Below are positions 12,057 through 49,413 of a DNA stretch of 64,000 nucleotides, one piece after another; position 1 is the first letter of the stretch; the number at the start of each line of letters is the position of its first letter. A program made the translations under genes and the position numbers. The notes beneath the pieces were generated by a model. It was not told the DNA's origin. It did no database searches and was given only the letters and a program-made list of their open reading frames with translations. The DNA comes from Eledone cirrhosa (lineage: Eukaryota), in assembly GCA_964016885.1 (NCBI GenBank), contig OZ024743.1, positions 116,250,001 through 116,314,000 on the forward strand. The letters run 5' to 3'.

Positions 12057-12101
<45 letters not shown>

Positions 12102-12252
12102 ATACTTTGGGAGGGTCATGTTGCCAATAAGAAACACACGCACCAGTTGCTTTCACTTCAATTTAATTTAATATATATTTATAAATTTACAAATTTATAA
12201 ATTTCTGGTTGGTTGGTTGGTTCCACAACCAGATAGTTGTTTATATATATAT

Positions 12253-12297
12253 AGTCATAGTTCTTTCGTCACACACTCTGTGACCTCTTCAGTGACT
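12253..12297 (-). ncRNA. Minimal type I hammerhead ribozyme (PLE unit 1)
   Basis: AGUCA-CUGAAGA-G-GUCACA-GAGUG-UGUGAC-GAAA-GAAC-UA|UGACU. Confidence 0.85.
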
Positions 12298-12601
12298 GGG
12301 GATTTCTTCCTTCGTTTCTGTGCCTTTCCTTTCTTCTATCCTACGCCATTTTGTTTGTGTGTGGGTTGCGTGCTCAGTTTGCGCATGCGCCACATCCGGG
12401 TGTCTGTGTGTGTTTGTGTTCATTTTTCTATTTTTCTATTTTTATATTTATATTTGTTTGTTTATTTATTTATTTATTGTTGGTTGGTTGTTTGTTCTAT
12501 GTGTGTGTGTGTTTTCATTTTGTCTTGTGTGTGTTTTCATTTTGTGTGTGTTTTCAATTGTAAGTTGTTTATATATGTGTGTGTGTGTTTTCATTTTGTC
12601 C

Positions 12602-15600
12602 TTAATTGTAAGTTGTGATGTTGCTGTTCCACTCATATTTTCTATTTAATTTTGGTTTTAATTCTTTTATGCTTACTGCCTCTGTAATTTGCCTAAACAT
12701 TGCGTCTTTCTTGTGTGTGGATTCTATTTTTATTTCTATGCTCTCTAATTTACCCCTGTGTTCTATCTTAGCATGTTGGTAGAGCACAGATGATTCTTTA
12801 CTATCTTGGAGGTCTCGCCAGTGTTCATTTATTCGTTCCCCTATACTACGAGCTGTCTCACCTATGTACACTATATTTTTGTTTCTACATTGTCCCTCAG
12901 TACATCTTATGCTATATACTACATTTCTAGTTTTACAGTTAATATGGGGGCTTATTTTACAGGTTATACATTTCTTATCTATACATGAGGGTCTTTGGAA
13001 CGGGTATGTCTTGCTAATAAGTGTTTTTACGGAGGTACCAGGTCTTTCTACTATCTTAATATTGAGATTATGTTTCTTTAGGGCCCTTCTAAATTTGTAG
13101 GCTAGTTCACCTCTAGGGGTTGTATTGATGAACATTACACTCTGGTATTTATTGCTATCATACCATGAGTTTATTCTATTGGCCTTGTTCTTAGTTCTTT
13201 CTATTCTATTCCAAAATTTGCTCCTATACAAGGGGCAGGTCCCATTTATGTCATTATTTACCATTTTTTCCCATTTGGTTCTGGCTCCTTTATACACTCT
13301 GATTCTATCTCTCTGATTGTAGCCAGAGAACTGCATACGGTGGATGAAGTGTTGTATGTGTCTCTCTAGTTCTTCGGGGTTGCACATGCGGGACACATTT
13401 CTCATCACCCGTATCAAATCCGCAATCAGTATGTTGATTTTGGTATGGTCCGAAATGGCCGAGTTTCGGTGGATCAGATGTTTGGAAGTCATGGGTTTGG
13501 CATAATGGGAATGGAGGATTTGTTTTTGGTTGTTAATAGTATCTAACCAGAGCTCTGTGTCTAGTACAGGTAATCGATGGTTGGGGTGTCTACTTGGGTA
13601 GTCTATAGTAACTCTAATGCTCTGGTGGATGGAGTTTGCTATTTGCTGGATGCTTTCCATTGTGTTTTTCTCAGGTTCCTGACTGTTCTTTAGTGGGGGT
13701 GTCTTAACTACGATGTTTATATCATCTACGTAGCGGGAGTACATTATCAGGGTTAATCTGTCTTCTAATTGTTCTTTAAGTTTTTGTTTAAGTCTACTGT
13801 CCCACCATACCATGAACAAGTTAGCTATGTCGCCTGCAATGCTAACACCAATGGCTGCTCCTTCCTCTTGGGCATATGTTTTACCATTAAATTTGAACAT
13901 ATGTTCCTTAAGGGTTAATTTTATGCTGGCCCCTACCGCATGTGCAATCATTTTCTTCAGTTCATCGTGGTTTTCGGGTGTCTGTATGGCTCTGGTCCAC
14001 CCGTTCCATCTATCTGTGTGGGTTTTCTTGGCCATTGAGGTAATGGTAGGTGGTCTGCCTCTTGCTGGTCTTGTAGGGCACAGGTTGCTAAGGTCATAAG
14101 TGTCTAGGTAACTATTACTATGGGTAAGCTTAAGTAGAAGTCCCAGCTCACTGGTATCAATCCCACGGAACTCAACCTTGCTCTCGCTGATCATTTCGAC
14201 GCATTTCTCCACAGCAAAATCCACGTCAATAGATGGATACAGGGACACAACATCCATACTGCCTATTATGCAGTTTGTTAGGTCCCCAGATCGGTTACCC
14301 GCGTCGATTCTGCTGAGGAGGTCCTCCGTGCTGTCACACACATCTGGGGACATCTCAATGATGGGGCGTATGATCAGGGAGAGGAAGTAGGACAGTCTGT
14401 AGTTACTAGCAATGTTAGCCCCACAGACTGGCCGTGTTGGTGGTCCCGCGACAGGGTCCCAGCCCGTTTTATGGTCTTTTCGAAGCCCATACAACGCCGG
14501 CACGTCATTGTTCCAGGCCTGGAAGTTGTTGGCAGTCCTTTTGTTGGGCTGCATTATATTTGTCCACATCACCATATGGGCATTGAGGGTTTTTTCTCTG
14601 TCCTCATGCTCCTGTGGTGTTACCTCTCTTGTGTTAGTGATGTGGGGTTGCATTGCCTGGATGTAGTTTGGCAGGCTGTCAACCGACATTCTGCCAGACT
14701 TGTCTGTTGGAAAGCATGCTATCTCTCCATTACGCGAGCGCTGCATGAGCTTACGCAAGCCATTTGCAGATTCTTCTCCCAGTTGCTGGGCCTCTATTCT
14801 ATTATGCTTCTTGCTATACTGTTCTATAATATTTCTAAGTTCGGATTTAGCTATACTAAATTGTGCTTCTGTTTGTTCATCGACCTGCGACGGCAACTGC
14901 GTGCGTTTGTTAAATGGCAAAGTCGTGGCGTGGACTCGTCGTAGGTCGAATGATTTATCGGAGTGGTTATAAAACGGAGAGTTCCAGGCTGCTGCTTTAT
15001 GTGTACTTGCGCTATTGTTAGTTGTGTTGTTTCTATTTCCACCAACAGCAGCAGCCTCAGCTTCATGGTTGTTTCTATGTCTCTCATAATTACTCCTGTC
15101 TCTTTCCACTGGCTCAATGTTGTTATCTACCCTATTTTGTGTGTCTGTGTGTTCGTCTTGGTTATTCTCTTTGTCCTTAGTCTCCCTACTCCTTTTAATC
15201 CTATTACTTTCTCTTATTTCTCTGATTTCTGTGCTACTGTCATTACTTGTTTTCTGTGTCTGTGTGTTTGTTAAGATTGTAGTGGTGGTGAGAGGCATTG
15301 AATGTGTGTGTGTTGTTGTTGTTGATGTGTGTTGTTGTTGATGTGTGTTGTTGTCTCCGTGTGTGTGTGTGTTATCGTTGTTGTGTGTGTTGTTATTGTT
15401 GTTTGTGTTTGCGTGTCTGTTGTTGTTGTATCTGGGTATGTTGCTGTTGTTGTTGTTGTTGATGTGTGTGTTGTTGTTATTGTTGTCTCCGTGTGTGTTG
15501 TTATTGTTGTTTGTGTCTGCGTGTCTGTTGTATCTGGGTATGTTGCTATTGTTGGTATTGTATCTGGGTATGTTGCTATTGTTGTTGTTATTGTTTGTGT

Positions 15601-16405
15601 CTGTGTGTCTGTTGTTGTTGGGATGTGTGTTGTATATGTGTGTGCGTATATTGTTGCTTTTGTTTTTGTTTTTGATGCTCCAGCGTAGTTTCGTAAATGA
15701 TTTTTCTATTTCTGACAGACAACTAATCATATTTACCTTCTTGAATGTCGCAAATTTGGGTGGCAAACGTAACACAGACATTTCATTATTGTCTATTTTC
15801 GTGTTTCCATAAATGTTGGTATTTTCATTGTTGAACTCTTCAGATAATGAGGTGTCGGCCATGTTGATACCGTCAATTTTGTCGGGATATCTATTGGTAT
15901 ACTCTATAGTATCCCGATTTAGCTTTGCCTGTTTAAGCCACTTTAATTTTCTGTTAAAGTGCTTATTACATTCTTGAGTAATGTACTGTTCTTCGGGGCG
16001 TATAAGGCTTATAAATGTTAGTTTTTCTGCTGGTGTGGTGATTTTAGATATTTCATCTATTAGGTTACGCTTTAGTTTTTCTTGATGACTTAATTCTCTA
16101 TAGATCTTCTTTTTTATGTTTAGAATTAAAGTTCGTTTTAGCCTATCTGCTTGTTTTTTGGTGAGTTGTAATCTTCTAACGTCGGTATTGATGGTGTTGG
16201 TGTAGATTCTAGAAGTGGTGCACAGTTTTATGAAGTGTAGTTGTCGAGATGTTATGGTTTTTCGTAGACAACAGAACATGGTGGTTTTCAGTATCTTGTT
16301 AGCCTGGCTAAGGCTTACGATATTTCGTTTCTGAATTTGTTTAGCAAGATTCTTTATCTGAAATCGTGTGTTGAAACCGATATTGTTATACTTTGGGAGG
16401 GTCAT
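12602..16405 (-). CDS. PLE polyprotein (RT + GIY-YIG endonuclease), 1267 aa, intact
   Basis: First ATG gives MTLPKY. Motifs DKSG, LYGLRKDHK, SMDVVSLYPSI, YAQEEGAAIG, RYVDD, LPVLD, CIDKKCITC and VVYSIRC..YIGET.RS..ER..EH. Confidence 0.95.
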   Translation of the reverse strand: MTLPKYNNIGFNTRFQIKNLAKQIQKRNIVSLSQANKILKTTMFCCLRKTITSRQLHFIKLCTTSRIYTNTINTDVRRLQLTKKQADRLKRTLILNIKKKIYRELSHQEKLKRNLIDEISKITTPAEKLTFISLIRPEEQYITQECNKHFNRKLKWLKQAKLNRDTIEYTNRYPDKIDGINMADTSLSEEFNNENTNIYGNTKIDNNEMSVLRLPPKFATFKKVNMISCLSEIEKSFTKLRWSIKNKNKSNNIRTHIYNTHPNNNRHTDTNNNNNNSNIPRYNTNNSNIPRYNRHADTNNNNNTHGDNNNNNTHINNNNNSNIPRYNNNRHANTNNNNNTHNNDNTHTHGDNNTHQQQHTSTTTTHTHSMPLTTTTILTNTQTQKTSNDSSTEIREIRESNRIKRSRETKDKENNQDEHTDTQNRVDNNIEPVERDRSNYERHRNNHEAEAAAVGGNRNNTTNNSASTHKAAAWNSPFYNHSDKSFDLRRVHATTLPFNKRTQLPSQVDEQTEAQFSIAKSELRNIIEQYSKKHNRIEAQQLGEESANGLRKLMQRSRNGEIACFPTDKSGRMSVDSLPNYIQAMQPHITNTREVTPQEHEDREKTLNAHMVMWTNIMQPNKRTANNFQAWNNDVPALYGLRKDHKTGWDPVAGPPTRPVCGANIASNYRLSYFLSLIIRPIIEMSPDVCDSTEDLLSRIDAGNRSGDLTNCIIGSMDVVSLYPSIDVDFAVEKCVEMISESKVEFRGIDTSELGLLLKLTHSNSYLDTYDLSNLCPTRPARGRPPTITSMAKKTHTDRWNGWTRAIQTPENHDELKKMIAHAVGASIKLTLKEHMFKFNGKTYAQEEGAAIGVSIAGDIANLFMVWWDSRLKQKLKEQLEDRLTLIMYSRYVDDINIVVKTPPLKNSQEPEKNTMESIQQIANSIHQSIRVTIDYPSRHPNHRLPVLDTELWLDTINNQKQILHSHYAKPMTSKHLIHRNSAISDHTKINILIADLIRVMRNVSRMCNPEELERHIQHFIHRMQFSGYNQRDRIRVYKGARTKWEKMVNNDINGTCPLYRSKFWNRIERTKNKANRINSWYDSNKYQSVMFINTTPRGELAYKFRRALKKHNLNIKIVERPGTSVKTLISKTYPFQRPSCIDKKCITCKISPHINCKTRNVVYSIRCTEGQCRNKNIVYIGETARSIGERINEHWRDLQDSKESSVLYQHAKIEHRGKLESIEIKIESTHKKDAMFRQITEAVSIKELKPKLNRKYEWNSNITTYN

Positions 16406-16538
16406 GTTGCCAATAAGAAACACACGCACCAGTTGCTTTCACTTCAATTTAATTTAATATATATTTATAAATTTACAAATTTATAAATTTCTGGTTGGTT
16501 GGTTGGTTCCACAACCAGATAGTTGTTTATATATATAT

Positions 16539-16583
16539 AGTCATAGTTCTTTCGTCACACACTCTGTGACCTCTTCAGTGACT
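16539..16583 (-). ncRNA. Minimal type I hammerhead ribozyme (PLE unit 2)
   Basis: Identical to 12253-12297. Confidence 0.85.
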
Positions 16584-16887
16584 GGGGATTTCTTCCTTCG
16601 TTTCTGTGCCTTTCCTTTCTTCTATCCTACGCCATTTTGTTTGTGTGTGGGTTGCGTGCTCAGTTTGCGCATGCGCCACATCCGGGTGTCTGTGTGTGTT
16701 TGTGTTCATTTTTCTATTTTTCTATTTTTATATTTATATTTGTTTGTTTATTTATTTATTTATTGTTGGTTGGTTGTTTGTTCTATGTGTGTGTGTGTTT
16801 TCATTTTGTCTTGTGTGTGTTTTCATTTTGTGTGTGTTTTCAATTGTAAGTTGTTTATATATGTGTGTGTGTGTTTTCATTTTGTCC

Positions 16888-19800
16888 TTAATTGTAAGTT
16901 GTGATGTTGCTGTTCCACTCATATTTTCTATTTAATTTTGGTTTTAATTCTTTTATGCTTACTGCCTCTGTAATTTGCCTAAACATTGCGTCTTTCTTGT
17001 GTGTGGATTCTATTTTTATTTCTATGCTCTCTAATTTACCCCTGTGTTCTATCTTAGCATGTTGGTAGAGCACAGATGATTCTTTACTATCTTGGAGGTC
17101 TCGCCAGTGTTCATTTATTCGTTCCCCTATACTACGAGCTGTCTCACCTATGTACACTATATTTTTGTTTCTACATTGTCCCTCAGTACATCTTATGCTA
17201 TATACTACATTTCTAGTTTTACAGTTAATATGGGGGCTTATTTTACAGGTTATACATTTCTTATCTATACATGAGGGTCTTTGGAACGGGTATGTCTTGC
17301 TAATAAGTGTTTTTACGGAGGTACCAGGTCTTTCTACTATCTTAATATTGAGATTATGTTTCTTTAGGGCCCTTCTAAATTTGTAGGCTAGTTCACCTCT
17401 AGGGGTTGTATTGATGAACATTACACTCTGGTATTTATTGCTATCATACCATGAGTTTATTCTATTGGCCTTGTTCTTAGTTCTTTCTATTCTATTCCAA
17501 AATTTGCTCCTATACAAGGGGCAGGTCCCATTTATGTCATTATTTACCATTTTTTCCCATTTGGTTCTGGCTCCTTTATACACTCTGATTCTATCTCTCT
17601 GATTGTAGCCAGAGAACTGCATACGGTGGATGAAGTGTTGTATGTGTCTCTCTAGTTCTTCGGGGTTGCACATGCGGGACACATTTCTCATCACCCGTAT
17701 CAAATCCGCAATCAGTATGTTGATTTTGGTATGGTCCGAAATGGCCGAGTTTCGGTGGATCAGATGTTTGGAAGTCATGGGTTTGGCATAATGGGAATGG
17801 AGGATTTGTTTTTGGTTGTTAATAGTATCTAACCAGAGCTCTGTGTCTAGTACAGGTAATCGATGGTTGGGGTGTCTACTTGGGTAGTCTATAGTAACTC
17901 TAATGCTCTGGTGGATGGAGTTTGCTATTTGCTGGATGCTTTCCATTGTGTTTTTCTCAGGTTCCTGACTGTTCTTTAGTGGGGGTGTCTTAACTACGAT
18001 GTTTATATCATCTACGTAGCGGGAGTACATTATCAGGGTTAATCTGTCTTCTAATTGTTCTTTAAGTTTTTGTTTAAGTCTACTGTCCCACCATACCATG
18101 AACAAGTTAGCTATGTCGCCTGCAATGCTAACACCAATGGCTGCTCCTTCCTCTTGGGCATATGTTTTACCATTAAATTTGAACATATGTTCCTTAAGGG
18201 TTAATTTTATGCTGGCCCCTACCGCATGTGCAATCATTTTCTTCAGTTCATCGTGGTTTTCGGGTGTCTGTATGGCTCTGGTCCACCCGTTCCATCTATC
18301 TGTGTGGGTTTTCTTGGCCATTGAGGTAATGGTAGGTGGTCTGCCTCTTGCTGGTCTTGTAGGGCACAGGTTGCTAAGGTCATAAGTGTCTAGGTAACTA
18401 TTACTATGGGTAAGCTTAAGTAGAAGTCCCAGCTCACTGGTATCAATCCCACGGAACTCAACCTTGCTCTCGCTGATCATTTCGACGCATTTCTCCACAG
18501 CAAAATCCACGTCAATAGATGGATACAGGGACACAACATCCATACTGCCTATTATGCAGTTTGTTAGGTCCCCAGATCGGTTACCCGCGTCGATTCTGCT
18601 GAGGAGGTCCTCCGTGCTGTCACACACATCTGGGGACATCTCAATGATGGGGCGTATGATCAGGGAGAGGAAGTAGGACAGTCTGTAGTTACTAGCAATG
18701 TTAGCCCCACAGACTGGCCGTGTTGGTGGTCCCGCGACAGGGTCCCAGCCCGTTTTATGGTCTTTTCGAAGCCCATACAACGCCGGCACGTCATTGTTCC
18801 AGGCCTGGAAGTTGTTGGCAGTCCTTTTGTTGGGCTGCATTATATTTGTCCACATCACCATATGGGCATTGAGGGTTTTTTCTCTGTCCTCATGCTCCTG
18901 TGGTGTTACCTCTCTTGTGTTAGTGATGTGGGGTTGCATTGCCTGGATGTAGTTTGGCAGGCTGTCAACCGACATTCTGCCAGACTTGTCTGTTGGAAAG
19001 CATGCTATCTCTCCATTACGCGAGCGCTGCATGAGCTTACGCAAGCCATTTGCAGATTCTTCTCCCAGTTGCTGGGCCTCTATTCTATTATGCTTCTTGC
19101 TATACTGTTCTATAATATTTCTAAGTTCGGATTTAGCTATACTAAATTGTGCTTCTGTTTGTTCATCGACCTGCGACGGCAACTGCGTGCGTTTGTTAAA
19201 TGGCAAAGTCGTGGCGTGGACTCGTCGTAGGTCGAATGATTTATCGGAGTGGTTATAAAACGGAGAGTTCCAGGCTGCTGCTTTATGTGTACTTGCGCTA
19301 TTGTTAGTTGTGTTGTTTCTATTTCCACCAACAGCAGCAGCCTCAGCTTCATGGTTGTTTCTATGTCTCTCATAATTACTCCTGTCTCTTTCCACTGGCT
19401 CAATGTTGTTATCTACCCTATTTTGTGTGTCTGTGTGTTCGTCTTGGTTATTCTCTTTGTCCTTAGTCTCCCTACTCCTTTTAATCCTATTACTTTCTCT
19501 TATTTCTCTGATTTCTGTGCTACTGTCATTACTTGTTTTCTGTGTCTGTGTGTTTGTTAAGATTGTAGTGGTGGTGAGAGGCATTGAATGTGTGTGTGTT
19601 GTTGTTGTTGATGTGTGTTGTTGTTGATGTGTGTTGTTGTCTCCGTGTGTGTGTGTGTTATCGTTGTTGTGTGTGTTGTTATTGTTGTTTGTGTTTGCGT
19701 GTCTGTTGTTGTTGTATCTGGGTATGTTGCTGTTGTTGTTGTTGTTGATGTGTGTGTTGTTGTTATTGTTGTCTCCGTGTGTGTTGTTATTGTTGTTTGT

Positions 19801-20691
19801 GTCTGCGTGTCTGTTGTATCTGGGTATGTTGCTATTGTTGGTATTGTATCTGGGTATGTTGCTATTGTTGTTGTTATTGTTTGTGTCTGTGTGTCTGTTG
19901 TTGTTGGGATGTGTGTTGTATATGTGTGTGCGTATATTGTTGCTTTTGTTTTTGTTTTTGATGCTCCAGCGTAGTTTCGTAAATGATTTTTCTATTTCTG
20001 ACAGACAACTAATCATATTTACCTTCTTGAATGTCGCAAATTTGGGTGGCAAACGTAACACAGACATTTCATTATTGTCTATTTTCGTGTTTCCATAAAT
20101 GTTGGTATTTTCATTGTTGAACTCTTCAGATAATGAGGTGTCGGCCATGTTGATACCGTCAATTTTGTCGGGATATCTATTGGTATACTCTATAGTATCC
20201 CGATTTAGCTTTGCCTGTTTAAGCCACTTTAATTTTCTGTTAAAGTGCTTATTACATTCTTGAGTAATGTACTGTTCTTCGGGGCGTATAAGGCTTATAA
20301 ATGTTAGTTTTTCTGCTGGTGTGGTGATTTTAGATATTTCATCTATTAGGTTACGCTTTAGTTTTTCTTGATGACTTAATTCTCTATAGATCTTCTTTTT
20401 TATGTTTAGAATTAAAGTTCGTTTTAGCCTATCTGCTTGTTTTTTGGTGAGTTGTAATCTTCTAACGTCGGTATTGATGGTGTTGGTGTAGATTCTAGAA
20501 GTGGTGCACAGTTTTATGAAGTGTAGTTGTCGAGATGTTATGGTTTTTCGTAGACAACAGAACATGGTGGTTTTCAGTATCTTGTTAGCCTGGCTAAGGC
20601 TTACGATATTTCGTTTCTGAATTTGTTTAGCAAGATTCTTTATCTGAAATCGTGTGTTGAAACCGATATTGTTATACTTTGGGAGGGTCAT
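16888..20691 (-). CDS. PLE polyprotein (RT + GIY-YIG), 1267 aa, intact
   Basis: Same protein as 12602-16405. The ATG lies 10 nt from the inversion junction. Confidence 0.93.
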   Translation of the reverse strand: MTLPKYNNIGFNTRFQIKNLAKQIQKRNIVSLSQANKILKTTMFCCLRKTITSRQLHFIKLCTTSRIYTNTINTDVRRLQLTKKQADRLKRTLILNIKKKIYRELSHQEKLKRNLIDEISKITTPAEKLTFISLIRPEEQYITQECNKHFNRKLKWLKQAKLNRDTIEYTNRYPDKIDGINMADTSLSEEFNNENTNIYGNTKIDNNEMSVLRLPPKFATFKKVNMISCLSEIEKSFTKLRWSIKNKNKSNNIRTHIYNTHPNNNRHTDTNNNNNNSNIPRYNTNNSNIPRYNRHADTNNNNNTHGDNNNNNTHINNNNNSNIPRYNNNRHANTNNNNNTHNNDNTHTHGDNNTHQQQHTSTTTTHTHSMPLTTTTILTNTQTQKTSNDSSTEIREIRESNRIKRSRETKDKENNQDEHTDTQNRVDNNIEPVERDRSNYERHRNNHEAEAAAVGGNRNNTTNNSASTHKAAAWNSPFYNHSDKSFDLRRVHATTLPFNKRTQLPSQVDEQTEAQFSIAKSELRNIIEQYSKKHNRIEAQQLGEESANGLRKLMQRSRNGEIACFPTDKSGRMSVDSLPNYIQAMQPHITNTREVTPQEHEDREKTLNAHMVMWTNIMQPNKRTANNFQAWNNDVPALYGLRKDHKTGWDPVAGPPTRPVCGANIASNYRLSYFLSLIIRPIIEMSPDVCDSTEDLLSRIDAGNRSGDLTNCIIGSMDVVSLYPSIDVDFAVEKCVEMISESKVEFRGIDTSELGLLLKLTHSNSYLDTYDLSNLCPTRPARGRPPTITSMAKKTHTDRWNGWTRAIQTPENHDELKKMIAHAVGASIKLTLKEHMFKFNGKTYAQEEGAAIGVSIAGDIANLFMVWWDSRLKQKLKEQLEDRLTLIMYSRYVDDINIVVKTPPLKNSQEPEKNTMESIQQIANSIHQSIRVTIDYPSRHPNHRLPVLDTELWLDTINNQKQILHSHYAKPMTSKHLIHRNSAISDHTKINILIADLIRVMRNVSRMCNPEELERHIQHFIHRMQFSGYNQRDRIRVYKGARTKWEKMVNNDINGTCPLYRSKFWNRIERTKNKANRINSWYDSNKYQSVMFINTTPRGELAYKFRRALKKHNLNIKIVERPGTSVKTLISKTYPFQRPSCIDKKCITCKISPHINCKTRNVVYSIRCTEGQCRNKNIVYIGETARSIGERINEHWRDLQDSKESSVLYQHAKIEHRGKLESIEIKIESTHKKDAMFRQITEAVSIKELKPKLNRKYEWNSNITTYN

Positions 20692-20701
20692 GTTGCCAAT
20701 A

Positions 20702-24263: not shown

Positions 24264-27200
24264 ATGACCCTCCCAAAGTATAACAATATCGGTTTCAACA
24301 CACGATTTCAGATAAAGAATCTTGCTAAACAAATTCAGAAACGAAATATCGTAAGCCTTAGCCAGGCTAACAAGATACTGAAAACCACCATGTTCTGTTG
24401 TCTACGAAAAACCATAACATCTCGACAACTACACTTCATAAAACTGTGCACCACTTCTAGAATCTACACCAACACCATCAATACCGACGTTAGAAGATTA
24501 CAACTCACCAAAAAACAAGTAGATAGGCTAAAACGAACTTTAATTCTAAACATAAAAAAGAAGATCTATAGAGAATTAAGTCATCAAGAAAAACTAAAGC
24601 GTAACCTAATAGATGAAATATCTAAAATCACCACACCAGCAGAAAAACTAACATTTATAAGCCTTATACGCCCCGAAGAACAGTACATTACTCAAGAATG
24701 TAATAAGCACTTTAACAGAAAATTAAAGTGGCTTAAACAGGCAAAGCTAAATCGGGATACTATAGAGTATACCAATAGATATCCCGACAAAATTGACGGT
24801 ATCAACATGGCCGACACCTCATTATCTGAAGAGTTCAACAATGAAAATACCAACATTTATGGAAACACGAAAATAGACAATAATGAAATGTCTGTGTTAC
24901 GTTTGCCACCCAAATTTGCGACATTCAAGAAGGTAAATATGATTAGTTGTCTGTCAGAAATAGAAAAATCATTTACGAAACTACGCTGGAGCATCAAAAA
25001 CAAAAACAAAAGCAACAATATACGCACACACATATACAACACACATCCCAACAACAACAGACACACAGACACAAACAATAACAACAACAATAGCAACATA
25101 CCCAGATACAATACCAACAATAGCAACATACCCAGATACAACAGACACGCAGACACAAACAACAATAACAACACACACGGAGACAACAATAACAACAACA
25201 CACACATCAACAACAACAACAACAGCAACATACCCAGATACAACAACAACAGACACGCAAACACAAACAACAATAACAACACACACAACAACGATAACAC
25301 ACACACACACGGAGACAACAACACACATCAACAACAACACACATCAACAACAACAACACACACACATTCAATGCCTCTCACCACCACTACAATCTTAACA
25401 AACACACAGACACAGAAAACAAGTAATGACAGTAGCACAGAAATCAGAGAAATAAGAGAAAGTAATAGGATTAAAAGGAGTAGGGAGACTAAGGACAAAG
25501 AGAATAACCAAGACGAACACACAGACACACAAAATAGGGTAGATAACAACATTGAGCCAGTGGAAAGAGACAGGAGTAATTATGAGAGACATAGAAACAA
25601 CCATGAAGCTGAGGCTGCTGCTGTTGGTGGAAATAGAAACAACACAACTAACAATAGCGCAAGTACACATAAAGCAGCAGCCTGGAACTCTCCGTTTTAT
25701 AACCACTCCGATAAATCATTCGACCTACGACGAGTCCACGCCACGACTTTGCCATTTAACAAACGCACGCAGTTGCCGTCGCAGGTCGATGAACAAACAG
25801 AAGCACAATTTAGTATAGCTAAATCCGAACTTAGAAATATTATAGAACAGTATAGCAAGAAGCATAATAGAATAGAGGCCCAGCAACTGGGAGAAGAATC
25901 TGCAAATGGCTTGCGTAAGCTCATGCAGCGCTCGCGTAATGGAGAGATAGCATGCTTTCCAACAGACAAGTCTGGCAGAATGTCGGTTGACAGCCTGCCA
26001 AACTACATCCAGGCAATGCAACCCCACATCACTAACACAAGAGAGGTAACACCACAGGAGCATGAGGACAGAGAAAAAACCCTCAATGCCCATATGGTGA
26101 TGTGGACAAATATAATGCAGCCCAACAAAAGGACTGCCAACAACTTCCAGGCCTGGAACAATGACGTGCCGGCGTTGTATGGGCTTCGAAAAGACCATAA
26201 AACGGGCTGGGACCCTGTCGCGGGACCACCAACACGGCCAGTCTGTGGGGCTAACATTGCTAGTAACTACAGACTGTCCTACTTCCTCTCCCTGATCATA
26301 CGCCCCATCATTGAGATGTCCCCAGATGTGTGTGACAGCACGGAGGACCTCCTCAGCAGAATCGACGCGGGTAACCGATCTGGGGACCTAACAAACTGCA
26401 TAATAGGCAGTATGGATGTTGTGTCCCTGTATCCATCTATTGACGTGGATTTTGCTGTGGAGAAATGCGTCGAAATGATCAGCGAGAGCAAGGTTGAGTT
26501 CCGTGGGATTGATACCAGTGAGCTGGGACTTCTACTTAAGCTTACCCATAGTAATAGTTACCTAGACACTTATGACCTTAGCAACCTGTGCCCTACAAGA
26601 CCAGCAAGAGGCAGACCACCTACCATTACCTCAATGGCCAAGAAAACCCACACAGATAGATGGAACGGGTGGACCAGAGCCATACAGACACCCGAAAACC
26701 ACGATGAACTGAAGAAAATGATTGCACATGCGGTAGGGGCCAGCATAAAATTAAAAATAAAATTAAAATTAACCCTTAAGGAACATATGTTCAAATTTAA
26801 TGGTAAAACATATGCCCAAGAGGAAGGAGCAGCCATTGGTGTTAGCATTGCAGGCGACATAGCTAACTTGTTCATGGTATGGTGGGACAGTAGACTTAAA
26901 CAAAAACTTAAAGAACAATTAGAAGACAGATTAACCCTGATAATGTACTCCCGCTACGTAGATGATATAAACATCGTAGTTAAGACACCCCCACTAAAGA
27001 ACAGTCAGGAACCTGAGAAAAACACAATGGAAAGCATCCAGCAAATAGCAAACTCCATCCACCAGAGCATTAGAGTTACTATAGACTACCCAAGTAGACA
27101 CCCCAACCATCGATTACCTGTACTAGACACAGAGCTCTGGTTAGATACTATTAACAACCAAAAACAAATCCTCCATTCCCATTATGCCAAACCCATGACT

Positions 27201-28085
27201 TCCAAACATCTGATCCACCGAAACTCGGCCATTTCGGACCATACCAAAATCAACATACTGATTGCGGATTTGATACGGGTGATGAGAAATGTGTCCCGCA
27301 TGTGCAACCCCGAAGAACTAGAGAGACACATACAACACTTCATCCACCGTATGCAGTTCTCTGGCTACAATCAGAGAGATAGAATCAGAGTGTATAAAGG
27401 AGCCAGAACCAAATGGGAAAAAATGGTAAATAATGACATAAATGGGACCTGCCCCTTGTATAGGAGCAAATTTTGGAATAGAATAGAAAGAACTAAGAAC
27501 AAGGCCAATAGAATAAACTCATGGTATGATAGCAATAAATACCAGAGTGTAATGTTCATCAATACAACCCCTAGAGGTGAACTAGCCTACAAATTTAGAA
27601 GGGCCCTAAAGAAACATAATCTCAATATTAAGATAGTAGAAAGACCTGGTACCTCCGTAAAAACACTTATTAGCAAGACATACCCGTTCCAAAGACCCTC
27701 ATGTATAGATAAGAAATGTATAACCTGTAAAATAAGCCCCCATATTAACTGTAAAACTAGAAATGTAGTATATAGCATAAGATGTACTGAGGGACAATGT
27801 AGAAACAAAAATATAGTGTACATAGGTGAGACAGCTCGTAGTATAGGGGAACGAATAAATGAACACTGGCGAGACCTCCAAGATAGTAAAGAATCATCTG
27901 TGCTCTACCAACATGCTAAGATAGAACACAGGGGTAAATTAGAGAGCATAGAAATAAAAATAGAATCCACACACAAGAAAGACGCAATGTTTAGGCAAAT
28001 TACAGAGGCAGTAAGCATAAAAGAATTAAAACCAAAATTAAATAGAAAATATGAGTGGAACAGCAACATCACAACTTACAATTAA
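24264..28085 (+). CDS. PLE polyprotein (RT + GIY-YIG), 1273 aa, with a 6-aa in-frame insertion
   Basis: Same motifs, plus an A>V change at 24520 and an 18-bp insertion at 26755-26772. Confidence 0.95.
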   Translation: MTLPKYNNIGFNTRFQIKNLAKQIQKRNIVSLSQANKILKTTMFCCLRKTITSRQLHFIKLCTTSRIYTNTINTDVRRLQLTKKQVDRLKRTLILNIKKKIYRELSHQEKLKRNLIDEISKITTPAEKLTFISLIRPEEQYITQECNKHFNRKLKWLKQAKLNRDTIEYTNRYPDKIDGINMADTSLSEEFNNENTNIYGNTKIDNNEMSVLRLPPKFATFKKVNMISCLSEIEKSFTKLRWSIKNKNKSNNIRTHIYNTHPNNNRHTDTNNNNNNSNIPRYNTNNSNIPRYNRHADTNNNNNTHGDNNNNNTHINNNNNSNIPRYNNNRHANTNNNNNTHNNDNTHTHGDNNTHQQQHTSTTTTHTHSMPLTTTTILTNTQTQKTSNDSSTEIREIRESNRIKRSRETKDKENNQDEHTDTQNRVDNNIEPVERDRSNYERHRNNHEAEAAAVGGNRNNTTNNSASTHKAAAWNSPFYNHSDKSFDLRRVHATTLPFNKRTQLPSQVDEQTEAQFSIAKSELRNIIEQYSKKHNRIEAQQLGEESANGLRKLMQRSRNGEIACFPTDKSGRMSVDSLPNYIQAMQPHITNTREVTPQEHEDREKTLNAHMVMWTNIMQPNKRTANNFQAWNNDVPALYGLRKDHKTGWDPVAGPPTRPVCGANIASNYRLSYFLSLIIRPIIEMSPDVCDSTEDLLSRIDAGNRSGDLTNCIIGSMDVVSLYPSIDVDFAVEKCVEMISESKVEFRGIDTSELGLLLKLTHSNSYLDTYDLSNLCPTRPARGRPPTITSMAKKTHTDRWNGWTRAIQTPENHDELKKMIAHAVGASIKLKIKLKLTLKEHMFKFNGKTYAQEEGAAIGVSIAGDIANLFMVWWDSRLKQKLKEQLEDRLTLIMYSRYVDDINIVVKTPPLKNSQEPEKNTMESIQQIANSIHQSIRVTIDYPSRHPNHRLPVLDTELWLDTINNQKQILHSHYAKPMTSKHLIHRNSAISDHTKINILIADLIRVMRNVSRMCNPEELERHIQHFIHRMQFSGYNQRDRIRVYKGARTKWEKMVNNDINGTCPLYRSKFWNRIERTKNKANRINSWYDSNKYQSVMFINTTPRGELAYKFRRALKKHNLNIKIVERPGTSVKTLISKTYPFQRPSCIDKKCITCKISPHINCKTRNVVYSIRCTEGQCRNKNIVYIGETARSIGERINEHWRDLQDSKESSVLYQHAKIEHRGKLESIEIKIESTHKKDAMFRQITEAVSIKELKPKLNRKYEWNSNITTYN

Positions 28086-28389
28086 GGACAAAATGAAAAC
28101 ACACACACACATATATAAACAACTTACAATTGAAAACACACACAAAATGAAAACACACACAAGACAAAATGAAAACACACACACACATAGAACAAACAAC
28201 CAACCAACAATAAATAAATAAATAAACAAACAAATATAAATATAAAAATAGAAAAATAGAAAAATGAACACAAACACACACAGACACCCGGATGTGGCGC
28301 ATGCGCAAACTGAGCACGCAACCCACACACAAACAAAATGGCGTAGGATAGAAGAAAGGAAAGGCACAGAAACGAAGGAAGAAATCCCC

Positions 28390-28434
28390 AGTCACTGAAG
28401 AGGTCACAGAGTGTGTGACGAAAGAACTATGACT
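28390..28434 (+). ncRNA. Minimal type I hammerhead ribozyme (PLE unit 4)
   Basis: Same motif. Confidence 0.85.
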
Positions 28435-28567
28435 ATATATATATAAACAACTATCTGGTTGTGGAACCAACCAACCAACCAGAAATTTATAAATTTGTAA
28501 ATTTATAAATATATATTAAATTAAATTGAAGTGAAAGCAACTGGTGCGTGTGTTTCTTATTGGCAAC

Positions 28568-31500
28568 ATGACCCTCCCAAAGTATAACAATATCGGTTTC
28601 AACACACGATTTCAGATAAAGAATCTTGCTAAACAAATTCAGAAACGAAATATCGTAAGCCTTAGCCAGGCTAACAAGATACTGAAAACCACCATGTTCT
28701 GTTGTCTACGAAAAACCATAACATCTCGACAACTACACTTCATAAAACTGTGCACCACTTCTAGAATCTACACCAACACCATCAATACCGACGTTAGAAG
28801 ATTACAACTCACCAAAAAACAAGTAGATAGGCTAAAACGAACTTTAATTCTAAACATAAAAAAGAAGATCTATAGAGAATTAAGTCATCAAGAAAAACTA
28901 AAGCGTAACCTAATAGATGAAATATCTAAAATCACCACACCAGCAGAAAAACTAACATTTATAAGCCTTATACGCCCCGAAGAACAGTACATTACTCAAG
29001 AATGTAATAAGCACTTTAACAGAAAATTAAAGTGGCTTAAACAGGCAAAGCTAAATCGGGATACTATAGAGTATACCAATAGATATCCCGACAAAATTGA
29101 CGGTATCAACATGGCCGACACCTCATTATCTGAAGAGTTCAACAATGAAAATACCAACATTTATGGAAACACGAAAATAGACAATAATGAAATGTCTGTG
29201 TTACGTTTGCCACCCAAATTTGCGACATTCAAGAAGGTAAATATGATTAGTTGTCTGTCAGAAATAGAAAAATCATTTACGAAACTACGCTGGAGCATCA
29301 AAAACAAAAACAAAAGCAACAATATACGCACACACATATACAACACACATCCCAACAACAACAGACACACAGACACAAACAATAACAACAACAATAGCAA
29401 CATACCCAGATACAATACCAACAATAGCAACATACCCAGATACAACAGACACGCAGACACAAACAACAATAACAACACACACGGAGACAACAATAACAAC
29501 AACACACACATCAACAACAACAACAACAGCAACATACCCAGATACAACAACAACAGACACGCAAACACAAACAACAATAACAACACACACAACAACGATA
29601 ACACACACACACACGGAGACAACAACACACATCAACAACAACACACATCAACAACAACAACACACACACATTCAATGCCTCTCACCACCACTACAATCTT
29701 AACAAACACACAGACACAGAAAACAAGTAATGACAGTAGCACAGAAATCAGAGAAATAAGAGAAAGTAATAGGATTAAAAGGAGTAGGGAGACTAAGGAC
29801 AAAGAGAATAACCAAGACGAACACACAGACACACAAAATAGGGTAGATAACAACATTGAGCCAGTGGAAAGAGACAGGAGTAATTATGAGAGACATAGAA
29901 ACAACCATGAAGCTGAGGCTGCTGCTGTTGGTGGAAATAGAAACAACACAACTAACAATAGCGCAAGTACACATAAAGCAGCAGCCTGGAACTCTCCGTT
30001 TTATAACCACTCCGATAAATCATTCGACCTACGACGAGTCCACGCCACGACTTTGCCATTTAACAAACGCACGCAGTTGCCGTCGCAGGTCGATGAACAA
30101 ACAGAAGCACAATTTAGTATAGCTAAATCCGAACTTAGAAATATTATAGAACAGTATAGCAAGAAGCATAATAGAATAGAGGCCCAGCAACTGGGAGAAG
30201 AATCTGCAAATGGCTTGCGTAAGCTCATGCAGCGCTCGCGTAATGGAGAGATAGCATGCTTTCCAACAGACAAGTCTGGCAGAATGTCGGTTGACAGCCT
30301 GCCAAACTACATCCAGGCAATGCAACCCCACATCACTAACACAAGAGAGGTAACACCACAGGAGCATGAGGACAGAGAAAAAACCCTCAATGCCCATATG
30401 GTGATGTGGACAAATATAATGCAGCCCAACAAAAGGACTGCCAACAACTTCCAGGCCTGGAACAATGACGTGCCGGCGTTGTATGGGCTTCGAAAAGACC
30501 ATAAAACGGGCTGGGACCCTGTCGCGGGACCACCAACACGGCCAGTCTGTGGGGCTAACATTGCTAGTAACTACAGACTGTCCTACTTCCTCTCCCTGAT
30601 CATACGCCCCATCATTGAGATGTCCCCAGATGTGTGTGACAGCACGGAGGACCTCCTCAGCAGAATCGACGCGGGTAACCGATCTGGGGACCTAACAAAC
30701 TGCATAATAGGCAGTATGGATGTTGTGTCCCTGTATCCATCTATTGACGTGGATTTTGCTGTGGAGAAATGCGTCGAAATGATCAGCGAGAGCAAGGTTG
30801 AGTTCCGTGGGATTGATACCAGTGAGCTGGGACTTCTACTTAAGCTTACCCATAGTAATAGTTACCTAGACACTTATGACCTTAGCAACCTGTGCCCTAC
30901 AAGACCAGCAAGAGGCAGACCACCTACCATTACCTCAATGGCCAAGAAAACCCACACAGATAGATGGAACGGGTGGACCAGAGCCATACAGACACCCGAA
31001 AACCACGATGAACTGAAGAAAATGATTGCACATGCGGTAGGGGCCAGCATAAAATTAAAAATAAAATTAAAATTAACCCTTAAGGAACATATGTTCAAAT
31101 TTAATGGTAAAACATATGCCCAAGAGGAAGGAGCAGCCATTGGTGTTAGCATTGCAGGCGACATAGCTAACTTGTTCATGGTATGGTGGGACAGTAGACT
31201 TAAACAAAAACTTAAAGAACAATTAGAAGACAGATTAACCCTGATAATGTACTCCCGCTACGTAGATGATATAAACATCGTAGTTAAGACACCCCCACTA
31301 AAGAACAGTCAGGAACCTGAGAAAAACACAATGGAAAGCATCCAGCAAATAGCAAACTCCATCCACCAGAGCATTAGAGTTACTATAGACTACCCAAGTA
31401 GACACCCCAACCATCGATTACCTGTACTAGACACAGAGCTCTGGTTAGATACTATTAACAACCAAAAACAAATCCTCCATTCCCATTATGCCAAACCCAT

Positions 31501-32389
31501 GACTTCCAAACATCTGATCCACCGAAACTCGGCCATTTCGGACCATACCAAAATCAACATACTGATTGCGGATTTGATACGGGTGATGAGAAATGTGTCC
31601 CGCATGTGCAACCCCGAAGAACTAGAGAGACACATACAACACTTCATCCACCGTATGCAGTTCTCTGGCTACAATCAGAGAGATAGAATCAGAGTGTATA
31701 AAGGAGCCAGAACCAAATGGGAAAAAATGGTAAATAATGACATAAATGGGACCTGCCCCTTGTATAGGAGCAAATTTTGGAATAGAATAGAAAGAACTAA
31801 GAACAAGGCCAATAGAATAAACTCATGGTATGATAGCAATAAATACCAGAGTGTAATGTTCATCAATACAACCCCTAGAGGTGAACTAGCCTACAAATTT
31901 AGAAGGGCCCTAAAGAAACATAATCTCAATATTAAGATAGTAGAAAGACCTGGTACCTCCGTAAAAACACTTATTAGCAAGACATACCCGTTCCAAAGAC
32001 CCTCATGTATAGATAAGAAATGTATAACCTGTAAAATAAGCCCCCATATTAACTGTAAAACTAGAAATGTAGTATATAGCATAAGATGTACTGAGGGACA
32101 ATGTAGAAACAAAAATATAGTGTACATAGGTGAGACAGCTCGTAGTATAGGGGAACGAATAAATGAACACTGGCGAGACCTCCAAGATAGTAAAGAATCA
32201 TCTGTGCTCTACCAACATGCTAAGATAGAACACAGGGGTAAATTAGAGAGCATAGAAATAAAAATAGAATCCACACACAAGAAAGACGCAATGTTTAGGC
32301 AAATTACAGAGGCAGTAAGCATAAAAGAATTAAAACCAAAATTAAATAGAAAATATGAGTGGAACAGCAACATCACAACTTACAATTAA
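28568..32389 (+). CDS. PLE polyprotein (RT + GIY-YIG), 1273 aa, same protein as unit 4
   Basis: Translation identical to 24264-28085. Confidence 0.95.
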   Translation: MTLPKYNNIGFNTRFQIKNLAKQIQKRNIVSLSQANKILKTTMFCCLRKTITSRQLHFIKLCTTSRIYTNTINTDVRRLQLTKKQVDRLKRTLILNIKKKIYRELSHQEKLKRNLIDEISKITTPAEKLTFISLIRPEEQYITQECNKHFNRKLKWLKQAKLNRDTIEYTNRYPDKIDGINMADTSLSEEFNNENTNIYGNTKIDNNEMSVLRLPPKFATFKKVNMISCLSEIEKSFTKLRWSIKNKNKSNNIRTHIYNTHPNNNRHTDTNNNNNNSNIPRYNTNNSNIPRYNRHADTNNNNNTHGDNNNNNTHINNNNNSNIPRYNNNRHANTNNNNNTHNNDNTHTHGDNNTHQQQHTSTTTTHTHSMPLTTTTILTNTQTQKTSNDSSTEIREIRESNRIKRSRETKDKENNQDEHTDTQNRVDNNIEPVERDRSNYERHRNNHEAEAAAVGGNRNNTTNNSASTHKAAAWNSPFYNHSDKSFDLRRVHATTLPFNKRTQLPSQVDEQTEAQFSIAKSELRNIIEQYSKKHNRIEAQQLGEESANGLRKLMQRSRNGEIACFPTDKSGRMSVDSLPNYIQAMQPHITNTREVTPQEHEDREKTLNAHMVMWTNIMQPNKRTANNFQAWNNDVPALYGLRKDHKTGWDPVAGPPTRPVCGANIASNYRLSYFLSLIIRPIIEMSPDVCDSTEDLLSRIDAGNRSGDLTNCIIGSMDVVSLYPSIDVDFAVEKCVEMISESKVEFRGIDTSELGLLLKLTHSNSYLDTYDLSNLCPTRPARGRPPTITSMAKKTHTDRWNGWTRAIQTPENHDELKKMIAHAVGASIKLKIKLKLTLKEHMFKFNGKTYAQEEGAAIGVSIAGDIANLFMVWWDSRLKQKLKEQLEDRLTLIMYSRYVDDINIVVKTPPLKNSQEPEKNTMESIQQIANSIHQSIRVTIDYPSRHPNHRLPVLDTELWLDTINNQKQILHSHYAKPMTSKHLIHRNSAISDHTKINILIADLIRVMRNVSRMCNPEELERHIQHFIHRMQFSGYNQRDRIRVYKGARTKWEKMVNNDINGTCPLYRSKFWNRIERTKNKANRINSWYDSNKYQSVMFINTTPRGELAYKFRRALKKHNLNIKIVERPGTSVKTLISKTYPFQRPSCIDKKCITCKISPHINCKTRNVVYSIRCTEGQCRNKNIVYIGETARSIGERINEHWRDLQDSKESSVLYQHAKIEHRGKLESIEIKIESTHKKDAMFRQITEAVSIKELKPKLNRKYEWNSNITTYN

Positions 32390-32693
32390 GGACAAAATGA
32401 AAACACACACACACATATATAAACAACTTACAATTGAAAACACACACAAAATGAAAACACACACAAGACAAAATGAAAACACACACACACATAGAACAAA
32501 CAACCAACCAACAATAAATAAATAAATAAACAAACAAATATAAATATAAAAATAGAAAAATAGAAAAATGAACACAAACACACACAGACACCCGGATGTG
32601 GCGCATGCGCAAACTGAGCACGCAACCCACACACAAACAAAATGGCGTAGGATAGAAGAAAGGAAAGGCACAGAAACGAAGGAAGAAATCCCC

Positions 32694-32738
32694 AGTCACT
32701 GAAGAGGTCACAGAGTGTGTGACGAAAGAACTATGACT
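32694..32738 (+). ncRNA. Minimal type I hammerhead ribozyme (PLE unit 5)
   Basis: Same motif. Confidence 0.85.
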
Positions 32739-32951
32739 ATATATATATAAACAACTATCTGGTTGTGGAACCAACCAACCAACCAGAAATTTATAAATTT
32801 GTAAATTTATAAATATATATTAAATTAAATTGAAGTGAAAGCAACTGGTGCGTGTGTTTCTTATTGGCAACATGACCCTCCCAAAGTATAACAATATCGG
32901 TTTCAACACACGATTTCAGATAAAGAATCTTGCTAAACAAATTCAGAAACG

Positions 32952-32982
<31 letters not shown>

Positions 32983-49000: not shown

Positions 49001-49395
<395 letters not shown>

Positions 49396-49413
49396 TATAT
49401 ATATATATATATA

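Follow-up and report, generated by a model that had tools for sequence, protein, structure and literature searches.

The Neptune and Nematis retrotransposons are the described elements closest to the one analysed here (Craig et al. 2021, PMC8557442). They are defined by a CX2-5CxxC motif between the RT and the endonuclease, encode both in a single ORF with a C-terminal GIY-YIG domain, and carry a CCHH motif. They insert into (TA)n as partial tandems with pseudo-LTRs, an inverted 5'-truncated copy, a tail of 30–40 nt at one end and a hammerhead motif. In Penelope of Drosophila virilis, the commonest active form consists of two tandem copies, the 5' one truncated, and large inverted repeats of variable size flank the tandems; how the tandems are regenerated is given there as unknown (Schostak et al. 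2008, PMC2377424). The origin of tandem and inverted PLE insertions, and with it the regeneration of a promoter-bearing pseudo-LTR, is called open in passages of both papers.

Biochemical work on the Poseidon protein of Anolis carolinensis has shown that it cleaves and extends both strands of AT-rich DNA in vitro, that two RT start sites near the 5' end of the ORF define the tail, and that the ribozyme upstream of these sites is dispensable (Frangieh et al. 2024, PMC11167929). The minimal hammerheads of PLEs combine a short helix I, a long helix II and an extra nucleotide that separates position 9 from 10.1; they cleave weakly and only as dimers, the monomer cannot close helix III, and they occur as opposite-strand pairs 100–700 nt apart (Cervera and de la Pena 2014, PMC4209133). 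Animal non-LTR retrozymes, too, consist of tandem units that each hold a single type I hammerhead, and a rolling-circle route has been proposed for them (bioRxiv 10.64898/2026.07.22.740005). Earlier publications already cover tandems, inverted arms, a tail on one side, hammerheads and the hypothesis of a circle. What we add is a quantified rule for the two ends of an insertion and a single-donor origin of its arms and units.

A head-to-head insertion of five units

The window, a stretch of 64,000 nt from Eledone cirrhosa (contig OZ024743.1), contains five units at 12094–32957 with identities of 99.5–100%, in agreement with the first-pass annotation. That annotation had placed all five head to tail without spacers or scars. 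Instead, the array is a single head-to-head insertion in (TA)n, with two units on the minus strand followed by three on the plus strand, and the target is retained as (TA)n flanks at 12061..12097 on the left and 32954..32982 on the right. The left arm (12094..20701, minus strand) spans 8608 nt, that is, two identical 4286-nt units plus 36 nt; it starts, at its 5' end, 10 nt before the ATG and finishes, at its 3' end, at 12094, which is unit nt 164 (site A). The right arm (20702..32957, plus strand; 12,256 nt) consists of a shortened unit 3 and units 4 and 5, and its 3' end at 32957 is unit nt 224 (site B). Sites A and B both terminate in AATAT, matching the (TA)n target, and the 60-nt 'tail' between them (32898..32957, plus strand) is made of the first ORF codons. 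The tandem joins inside each arm are indeed free of spacers and scars, whereas the blunt inversion junction at 20701..20702, where unit nt 129 is joined to 862, is a scar.

The units of the left arm measure 4286 nt and units 4 and 5 measure 4304 nt, owing to an 18-nt hexamer-like expansion at 26736..26781 (plus strand) that is repeated in unit 5 at 31040–31085 and whose only two matches genome-wide are these. Units 4 and 5 also have in common a C>T change at 24520 (C395T) that is absent from units 1 and 2; outside units 4 and 5, 395T occurs at one further place, a 95% copy. In unit 3 (20702..24125, plus strand) the expansion is missing, as are nt 1 to 861 of the unit. A single base is deleted from an A run near 23715, which puts the last codons out of frame; this deletion may be a sequencing error. 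One rolling circle does not explain why, within the array, the expansion and C395T are confined to units 4 and 5, and a duplication, at the level of DNA or of the assembly, is likelier. An origin of the two unit lengths in two co-expressed subfamilies was rejected, since the expansion occurs only at this locus.

Four ORFs are open, as had been annotated, although only the two on the left have the canonical 1267 aa. These lie on the minus strand at 12602..16405 (unit 1, with a full pseudo-LTR upstream) and 16888..20691 (unit 2, identical in sequence and without an upstream pseudo-LTR). The ORFs of unit 4 (24264..28085) and unit 5 (28568..32389), both on the plus strand, are identical to each other and encode 1273 aa, with an A>V substitution caused by the change at 24520 and a six-residue insertion in the RT. 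This insertion, KIKLKL, sits in an RT helix at a place where none of 17 homologues is gapped. As a whole, the array is a very young copy of a Penelope-like element, and its length is unusual.

A Neptune-like element

By its sequence features we classify the element as a Neptune-like Penelope retrotransposon (EN+ PLE), an assignment to clade made on motif and target criteria. The order of RT and C-terminal GIY-YIG within one ORF was read from motifs in the translation and is conserved in the 17 homologues. Profile searches were in line with it: the RT part matches Pfam RVT_1 at E 1.2e-4, short of the curated cut-off, a homologue (P0005) matches the GIY-YIG profile at E 5.7e-4, and there is a weak match to the intron endonuclease 1mk0 (E 0.18). 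A Pfam search with the entire ORF gave no meaningful family, and a profile search against solved structures gave distant bacterial RTs only.

The general features of PLEs are all present, namely partial-tandem pseudo-LTRs, an inverted 5'-truncated copy, a tail at one end and a hammerhead motif in the pseudo-LTR. Those of Neptune and Nematis are found as well: a CX4CxxC linker between RT and endonuclease, conserved in the homologues, a CCHH motif with two Cys between GIY and YIG, and insertion into (TA)n. The element departs from the described type in its 60-nt tail and its long ORF of 1267 aa with an Asn/Thr-rich insert, and may also do so in the spacing of its RT motifs, which is IFD-like; canonical PLE RTs are characterised by having no insertion-in-fingers domain. 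The motif A Asp (D233) and the motif B Gln (Q361) are 128 residues apart, a spacing of about 128 holds in all homologues, and it is longer than is usual for Penelope-type RTs.

Other groups were considered and set aside: Naiad and Chlamys have an N-terminal GIY-YIG and no canonical hammerhead, and here the endonuclease is C-terminal and a hammerhead present; the Hydra clade lacks CCHH, has DKT and is under 3 kb, and here we find CCHH, DKS and 4.3 kb. A non-LTR retrozyme would be a short, non-coding tandem unit with a type I hammerhead, whereas this unit encodes a 1267-aa protein; the element is autonomous and 4.3 kb long, and multimers of it are rare. Penelope of D. virilis belongs to another clade; it shares with our locus the tandems with a truncated 5' copy and the inverted repeats (PMC2377424). 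Our locus differs in that each of its arms is a multimer and in where the arms end, at fixed points formed by two AATAT sites in (TA)n.

Nearly all two-armed insertions pair an A end with a B end

The two ends seen in the window recur throughout the genome. Counting from the ribozyme cut, arms end 164 nt (site A) or 224 nt (site B) further on, inside the ORF, and not at the cut itself. In 185 fetched stretches together with the window, 271/279 3' ends abutting (TA)n were at A or B, 134 of them exactly at 164 and 121 exactly at 224. Genome-wide, (TA)n junctions comprise 13,315 A ends and 13,921 B ends, a ratio near 1:1, and the family has about 13,000–14,000 insertions. Both ends also appear as loose ends in (TA)n in contigs and RAD-seq data from independent public runs (A and B in X1, X5 and X22; B in X4).

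Head-to-head pairs almost always combine the two sites: 87 of 91 pairs were A+B, with three A+A, no B+B and one other (binomial p 2e-22 against free choice). An independent census of the junction list over the first 37 Mb of C1 gave 45 A+B among 50 head-to-head neighbours, with three B+B and two A+A. The pairing is therefore near-strict, with exceptions in 4/91 and 5/50 cases, and the one-sided 'optional tail' of these elements amounts to a near-strict rule of one A and one B. Literature searches turned up no published statement of an A+B or twin-priming rule for PLEs, although one may exist in subscription papers or supplements. The inversion together with two fixed priming ends is the main mechanistic signal. 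The Poseidon start sites resemble A and B in their position near the ORF 5' end and in delimiting the tail; they are described, in the relevant parts of PMC11167929, as having neither target homology nor a strand difference, whereas in our family the sites match (TA)n and one is used per arm.

An inverted arm could also be a hairpin copy of the first arm, made by self-priming, with the tail left when an endonuclease resolves the intermediate, as proposed in PMC3846280 and in part of PMC8557442. Such a fold-back would likewise predict a single donor for both arms. It would fit overlaps of more than 5 nt at palindromes, seen at 8/84 junctions, and the excess of pairs with a long arm in which both breaks fall within 12 nt of the same unit position (4/39, expected 0.5, p 0.0006). 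Palindromic joins, however, are equally expected from annealing of two cDNA ends, and the RT start sites observed in vitro coincide with the tail ends (PMC11167929). The B arm always has the tail, yet the A arm extends further 5' in 20/44 pairs in which both arms are shorter than one unit, so that neither is a copy of the other made by folding back; as each arm of these 20 pairs has sequence missing in the other, trimming and kilobase loops would be needed. We regard the fold-back as improbable.

The family has a single master lineage. Its tree is ladder-shaped, with the window locus at the tip, and among 52 ORF starts examined, 15 outside the window open into ORFs of at least 1150 aa. Together with the number of A and B ends, these observations support the earlier suggestion that the family is probably active. 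With so many insertions, a master lineage and intact young copies, the end products of insertion become countable.

Arms and units come from one donor lineage

At 167 subfamily-diagnostic non-CpG sites, the two arms of an insertion disagreed in 53/2771 comparisons (1.9%) and successive units in 30/2311 (1.3%), compared with 45.5% for random pairs and 14.4% for identity-matched pairs. Sample-private alleles told the same story, with 59 shared by both arms in 64.6 kb and 25 by successive units in 50.3 kb, against 12 in 868.5 kb of control. In the window, all five units have rare alleles in common (among young copies, 753C occurs in 0/19, 2561A in 0/29 and 4235G in 2/38). Both arms and successive units thus derive from one donor lineage; a common donor is no proof of a common RNA molecule, and part of the allele sharing could stem from gene conversion between arms. 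No sibling or donor of the window locus was found among 19 stretches of the assembly, all at most 97.9% identical; the search started from 26 matches to the 2561A word, five of them in the window, and compared 18 fetched stretches and one other.

These data bear on the suggestion, made for PLE tandems in PMC6765202 and in PMC2377424, that arrays grow as one copy after another inserts independently into the AT-rich pseudo-LTR of the element itself. In its favour, a short (TA)n follows every predicted cut site. Against this, the family inserts with two arms between (TA)n flanks and yet the tandem joins are scar-free, the rare alleles are common to all five units, and successive units match far better than the identity-matched controls. 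This reading is largely refuted, and we consider it very improbable.

Two-ended priming as the likely route

The A+B rule, the single donor and the finding that neither arm is a copy of the other narrow the mechanism to coordinated two-ended priming. We think it reasonably probable that the array is a recent head-to-head insertion, primed from both ends at A and B on RNA of one donor, in which one 4304-nt unit was later doubled. The GIY-YIG domain would cut both strands of (TA)n, and each end of the break would prime reverse transcription at a fixed site within the ORF: its terminal ATAT would let each 3'-OH anneal to one of two AAUAU sites that lie 60 nt from each other. Copying would then be done independently by two RTs, over lengths that decay broadly; the two likely form a dimer, the state predicted for the Poseidon protein of the anole. 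The cDNA ends would be joined via microhomology, palindromes or short template-switch pieces, each acting as second-strand primer for the other, and the doubling of one 4304-nt unit probably followed at the DNA or assembly level.

Some points count against this reading: the A+B pairing is not absolute, and the Poseidon start sites show neither the target homology nor the asymmetry between strands that is seen here. In unbiased pairs the lengths of the two arms showed no significant correlation (rho 0.24, p 0.17, n=34), which makes two arms of at least two units at one locus improbable under a simple model and suggests a secondary duplication on the left arm also. Arms longer than one unit would need a longer template, whether an uncut read-through multimer, a homology-guided jump or a ligated circle.

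Hammerheads and the template for long arms

Each unit contains one type I minimal hammerhead, five in the array, located by eye and by pattern. The annotated spacing of one per 4286 nt applies to the left arm only, as units 4 and 5 have a period of 4304 nt. The two on the minus strand are that of the left arm's 3' pseudo-LTR (12253..12297; predicted cut between 12258 and 12257) and the one between units 2 and 1 (16539..16583; predicted cut between 16544 and 16543). On the plus strand they lie at 24086..24130, at 28390..28434 between units 4 and 5 (predicted cut 28429/28430) and at 32694..32738 in the 3' pseudo-LTR of the right arm (32733/32734). In the one at 24086..24130, the predicted cut at 24125/24126 follows a CUA triplet and was read directly from the sequence; helix I has 5 bp, the core is CUGAAGA with an extra G between 9 and 10.1, helix II has 6 bp with GAAA, and the 2-bp helix III is not closable in cis. 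In the short helix I, the long helix II, the extra nucleotide, the dimer-dependent helix III and the opposite-strand pairs, these motifs show no difference of substance from those in the corresponding parts of PMC4209133, with little variation among young copies. The genome holds 4602 exact matches to a 48-nt hammerhead word, against none to the reversed control, and the array is far beyond chance expectation; an Rfam scan (E up to 1) listed no hammerhead family, and none at gathering score, among 150 of its 178 matches. Counted from the predicted cut, the ATG is at +139 and the stop at +3942. The hammerhead thus lies 138 nt upstream of the ATG, whereas that of Poseidon overlaps it (PMC11167929).

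Dimeric hammerheads could cut read-through RNA into monomers, which would be ligated into circles around which the RT rolls to give multimers. The circle put forward in the first-pass annotation, like more-than-unit reverse transcription, was already proposed in 2014 (PMC4209133). The geometry is right: two successive cuts would release a monomer of exact length that holds the entire ORF. At diagnostic sites successive units agree, the lengths of long arms fall off smoothly past one unit with no common upper limit, and common hammerhead variants are confined to loops II and III and to H17 (A or U), all as a circle would allow. The predicted cut site is passed without a scar in 68/98 first and 47/66 second crossings, which is expected from a circle and from an uncut precursor alike.

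Several observations speak against a circle. Helix III does not close in cis and minimal hammerheads are weak even as dimers; hammerhead mutants left Poseidon insertion unaffected, and the part of that study dealing with RNA reports no RNA-seq ends at its cut site (PMC11167929); and units 4 and 5 carry changes missing from the left arm and, at the expansion site, from unit 3. As a sign of cleavage in vivo we looked for a pile-up of 5' ends at the predicted cut among unselected and long arms and saw none: 3/98 unselected arms ended 3–9 nt past the first cut site, and 1/66 long arms stopped exactly at the second, with three more inside the adjoining TA run. In one insertion, L046, there are two stops precisely at the cut, as expected of the 5' end of a cut linear RNA. 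There are 421 differences between upstream and downstream units, at 384 distinct site/allele combinations, a few of them recurrent; at one CA-repeat site the upstream and downstream pseudo-LTRs differ one way in five loci, which do not form one clade, and the reverse way in one, a weak hint of inherited linear templates. A circular template is possible, but we doubt it; a linear one, uncut or jumped, is slightly favoured, sequence data alone being unable to separate the two. Taken alone, the window locus is no demonstration of a circle; it represents a known architecture in an extreme and partly secondary form. The family offers a clean system for the question of circle versus linear template.

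The circle concerns the template only and is compatible with two-ended priming. In a combined form, an RT dimer on one hammerhead-made circle would prime both ends of the (TA)n break at the AAUAU sites 60 nt apart, each RT would pursue the other around the circle, displacing strands on the way, and the cDNAs would prime each other's second strand. This is unlikely in our estimation; if true, a single mechanism would account for how all endonuclease-bearing Penelope elements regenerate their pseudo-LTRs and come to have tandems, inverted arms and a tail on one side.

Multimeric arms are rare

Multimers are rare in the family, and the window locus is an extreme case: none of 98 unselected arms was longer than one unit, and no more than two pairs one unit apart occurred among the first 100 full-length ORF starts in a list of 398. 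Both figures, and the 100% identity of units 1 and 2 and of units 4 and 5, would fit an assembly that has added at least one identical extra unit to a real locus of about 4.3–8.6 kb plus 7.9 kb. We judge such an expansion to be rather unlikely. The inversion junction serves as a unique anchor, with the flanks at distances of 8.6 and 12.3 kb, probably within reach of long reads, and multimeric arms exist elsewhere, at L119 (8.3 kb) and at L008/L009 (about 11 kb), with one difference between units.

Architecture of the array

Self-alignment of the window matched 12094-20701 to the opposite strand of 32897-24254 at 99.6% and 12094-16415 exactly to 16380-20701. The array of five Penelope-like element (PLE) units (12094-32957) is thus made of two arms that lie head to head, joined at 20701/20702. 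The first-pass annotation had described five head-to-tail units; the orientation was wrong, and the near-identity it reported between units holds. Its period of 4286 nt describes the left arm (12094-20701; units 1 and 2, minus strand), which consists of two identical units of that length plus 36 nt. It does not describe the right arm (units 3-5, plus strand), where a unit without its first 861 nt is followed by two units of 4304 nt. Each arm runs out into a (TA)n run, at 12061-12097 and 32954-32982. Few differences separate the units. Units 4 and 5 carry a C>T substitution and an 18-nt expansion; unit 3 has lost 1 nt, and its ORF is truncated and frame-shifted. The claim of four intact ORFs stands for units 1 and 2 (1267 aa) and needs amending for units 4 and 5 (1273 aa), which have six residues added in an RT helix. 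Because this helix is ungapped in all 17 homologues, a function for the addition appears doubtful. The array is a real, young and extreme case of a known tandem/inverted PLE architecture, the one described for the commonest Penelope form in D. virilis (PMC2377424).

Two end sites and their pairing

Exact-word counts in the genome were 4602 for the 48-nt hammerhead, 24,484 for the word just 5' of end A (defined below), 8012 for the tail and 398 for the word just 3' of end B, which marks starts of full-length ORFs. From the same assembly we fetched 185 stretches, a non-random set: 60 in order along contig C1 from end-word lists, 87 around ORF starts (all among the leading 100 of those 398 matches), the 13 best matches at the DNA level, 18 chosen for the alleles they carry, and 7 that extend or flank other stretches.

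With the predicted hammerhead cut as origin, the ORF runs from its ATG at nt 139 to a stop at 3942. Once one duplicate stretch had been removed, 271 of 279 3' ends touching (TA)n fell at unit nt 164 (A) or 224 (B), both terminating in AATAT; the 60 nt between them form the tail. Genome-wide there are 13,315 A and 13,921 B junctions, and both sites occur as (TA)n loose ends in the public sequencing runs X1, X5 and X22, with B also in X4. These fixed ends make it likely that reverse transcription begins within the ORF, at 164 and 224 nt past the ribozyme site, rather than at an end produced by the ribozyme. The in vitro work on anole Poseidon (PMC11167929) points the same way, with two internal start sites, cutting and extension of both strands, and ribozyme mutants without effect.

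Among 91 head-to-head pairs, 87 joined an A arm to a B arm, three were A+A, none was B+B and one was of another kind. Junction lists alone gave 50 head-to-head neighbours (45 A+B, three B+B, two A+A), and the 10 tail-to-tail neighbours in these lists gauge chance adjacency. Elsewhere the tail is called optional, or often present at one end only (PMC8557442 and PMC3846280). We found no statement of strict A+B-type pairing for PLEs in the literature covered, namely the main text of papers open without subscription. For many A or B junctions the lists give no partner within 10 kb (100 of 197 ends are paired in the C1 lists), and some fetched insertions, such as L021 and L022, are truly one-armed with (TA)n at both sides.

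One donor for both arms

Arms and successive units were compared at 167 diagnostic non-CpG sites. The two arms of one insertion mismatched in 53 of 2771 comparisons across 42 pairs, and successive units in 30 of 2311 across 45 pairs; the mismatch was 45.5% between random pairs and 14.4% between identity-matched control pairs. Sample-private alleles were held in common at 0.91 per kb by two arms and 0.50 by successive units, compared with 0.014 in the control. The arms are not nested: the tail is always on B, yet in 20 of the 44 short pairs it is A that extends further 5'. Of the junctions in 84 pairs, 22 are 1-5-nt overlaps, 26 are blunt or have a tiny insertion, 8 are longer overlaps at palindromes and 28 hold inserted pieces. 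The simplest reading of these patterns is that two independent primings would occur on RNA of one donor, after which the cDNA ends of the two arms would anneal. Gene conversion between the arms remains a rival, as does a fold-back trimmed by an endonuclease. What seems new here, and deserves to be kept, is a rule drawn from counts: one arm ends at A and its partner at B, both come from one donor, and neither is copied from the other. It opens PLE insertion mechanics, so far an open question, to direct tests.

At four loci (L102, L058, L144 and L147; 4 of 39, with 0.5 expected) both arms break at one unit position, one arm being a full unit longer; two of these break at a palindrome near unit nt 27.

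The hammerhead and the template

As had been reported, there is one hammerhead per unit; all five are minimal and of type I, the minus strand carrying two and the plus strand three. The predicted fold contains helices I and II (z -1.3 to -2.6); helix III, with two base pairs enclosing a 2-nt loop, is unable to close in cis. Like the hammerheads of PMC4209133, these have an additional G between positions 9 and 10.1 and a dimer requirement. That paper finds such ribozymes to be of low activity and already puts forward ligated circles and reverse transcription over more than one unit. Common family variants fall at loop II, loop III and H17 (A 182, U 70, n = 255), a placement that weakly fits maintained function.

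The ribozyme site is passed scar-free by 68 of 98 unselected arms. On the second pass, 47 of 66 long arms are scar-free, 18 end before the site and one ends on it. A ligated circle as template, suggested by the first-pass annotation by analogy with retrozymes and already published as an idea, would predict such crossing; a linear template, uncut or seamlessly jumped, predicts it equally. The arm that ends on the site (L046:4840-4990, contig C26; 4.4 kb) is the only one of its kind among the 66, and its 5' end and a neighbouring 28-nt inserted piece both begin exactly at the predicted cut.

All five window units have in common three alleles that are rare in young copies, and comparison of the fetched allele carriers found no young sibling of the locus in the assembly, as would be expected of one event whose donor is absent from the assembly. 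The 18-nt expansion has two genome matches only, units 4 and 5, which alone also have C395T in common; unit 3, the next made on the same arm, is without the expansion. A single circle is therefore insufficient for this locus, barring a precise reversion. Doubling of one unit by unequal exchange, second-strand slippage or assembly error can explain the pattern. A weak hint of a linear template comes from a CA-repeat site at which upstream and downstream pseudo-LTRs differ in the same way in five loci, which are non-monophyletic, and in the opposite way in one.

Protein and classification

Besides RT motifs, the array protein contains a CX4CxxC linker, a GIY-YIG domain bearing CCHH residues, and a low-complexity stretch rich in Asn/Thr; N-rich inserts are described for rotifer Penelope ORFs (PMC3846280). 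Pfam support is weak (RVT_1, E 1.2e-4), and the nearest named protein is a hypothetical one from Octopus vulgaris (67% identity), which makes an octopod host likely. Judged by the features listed in PMC8557442, the element is probably a C-terminal-endonuclease PLE of Neptune/Nematis type. RT motifs A and B are separated by ~128 residues, a spacer that is kept in 20 homologues and resembles an insertion-in-fingers domain despite the C-terminal endonuclease.

Family size and age

Among the 98 arms of the 60 unselected stretches, the median length is 318 nt and no arm is longer than one unit. Long arms become steadily fewer between 4.3 and 7.2 kb. If arms with a mapped 3' end outside the window are considered, two units are approached or passed only by L119 (8.3 kb) and L008/L009 (about 11 kb). 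Multimers are thus a rare tail of the family and not its norm. ORFs remain open for at least 1150 aa at 19 of 52 starts with enough downstream sequence, four of the 19 being in the window. The 45 long arms placed in a tree form a ladder, with the window locus at its tip. Runs X5-X9, labelled as five other organisms, contain 25-46% of the element's words. In X5, the one of these runs that was mapped along the element, sequence covers each of the 30 bins and shows both end sites, which indicates that related species share the family.

Neighbouring copies

Directly beside the array, at 33006-34476 (inverted 33006-33406/34054-34476), lies a second insertion with two arms, which belongs to a different PLE family. 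It has minimal hammerheads at 33138-33171 (minus) and 34310-34343 (plus) and a GIY-YIG fragment with 59% identity to the array protein. An older one-armed copy of the array's family (49104-49414, 87%) ends at B in (TA)n and has a mutated hammerhead core. A short fragment of a related family (11445-11521) ends at unit nt about 212, with another terminal word before (TA)n, and this end recurs in many fetched loci. An inverted repeat of 89% identity (53306-54209/56749-57653; span 53306-57653) surrounds an RT fragment (54707-55519) whose motifs we take to be of Penelope/Poseidon type. More hammerhead-like cores, on both strands and some in opposite-strand pairs within palindromes, occur at 36060-36257, 40874-41262, 52263-53025 and 5621-5661, which suggests at least three further PLE families in the window.
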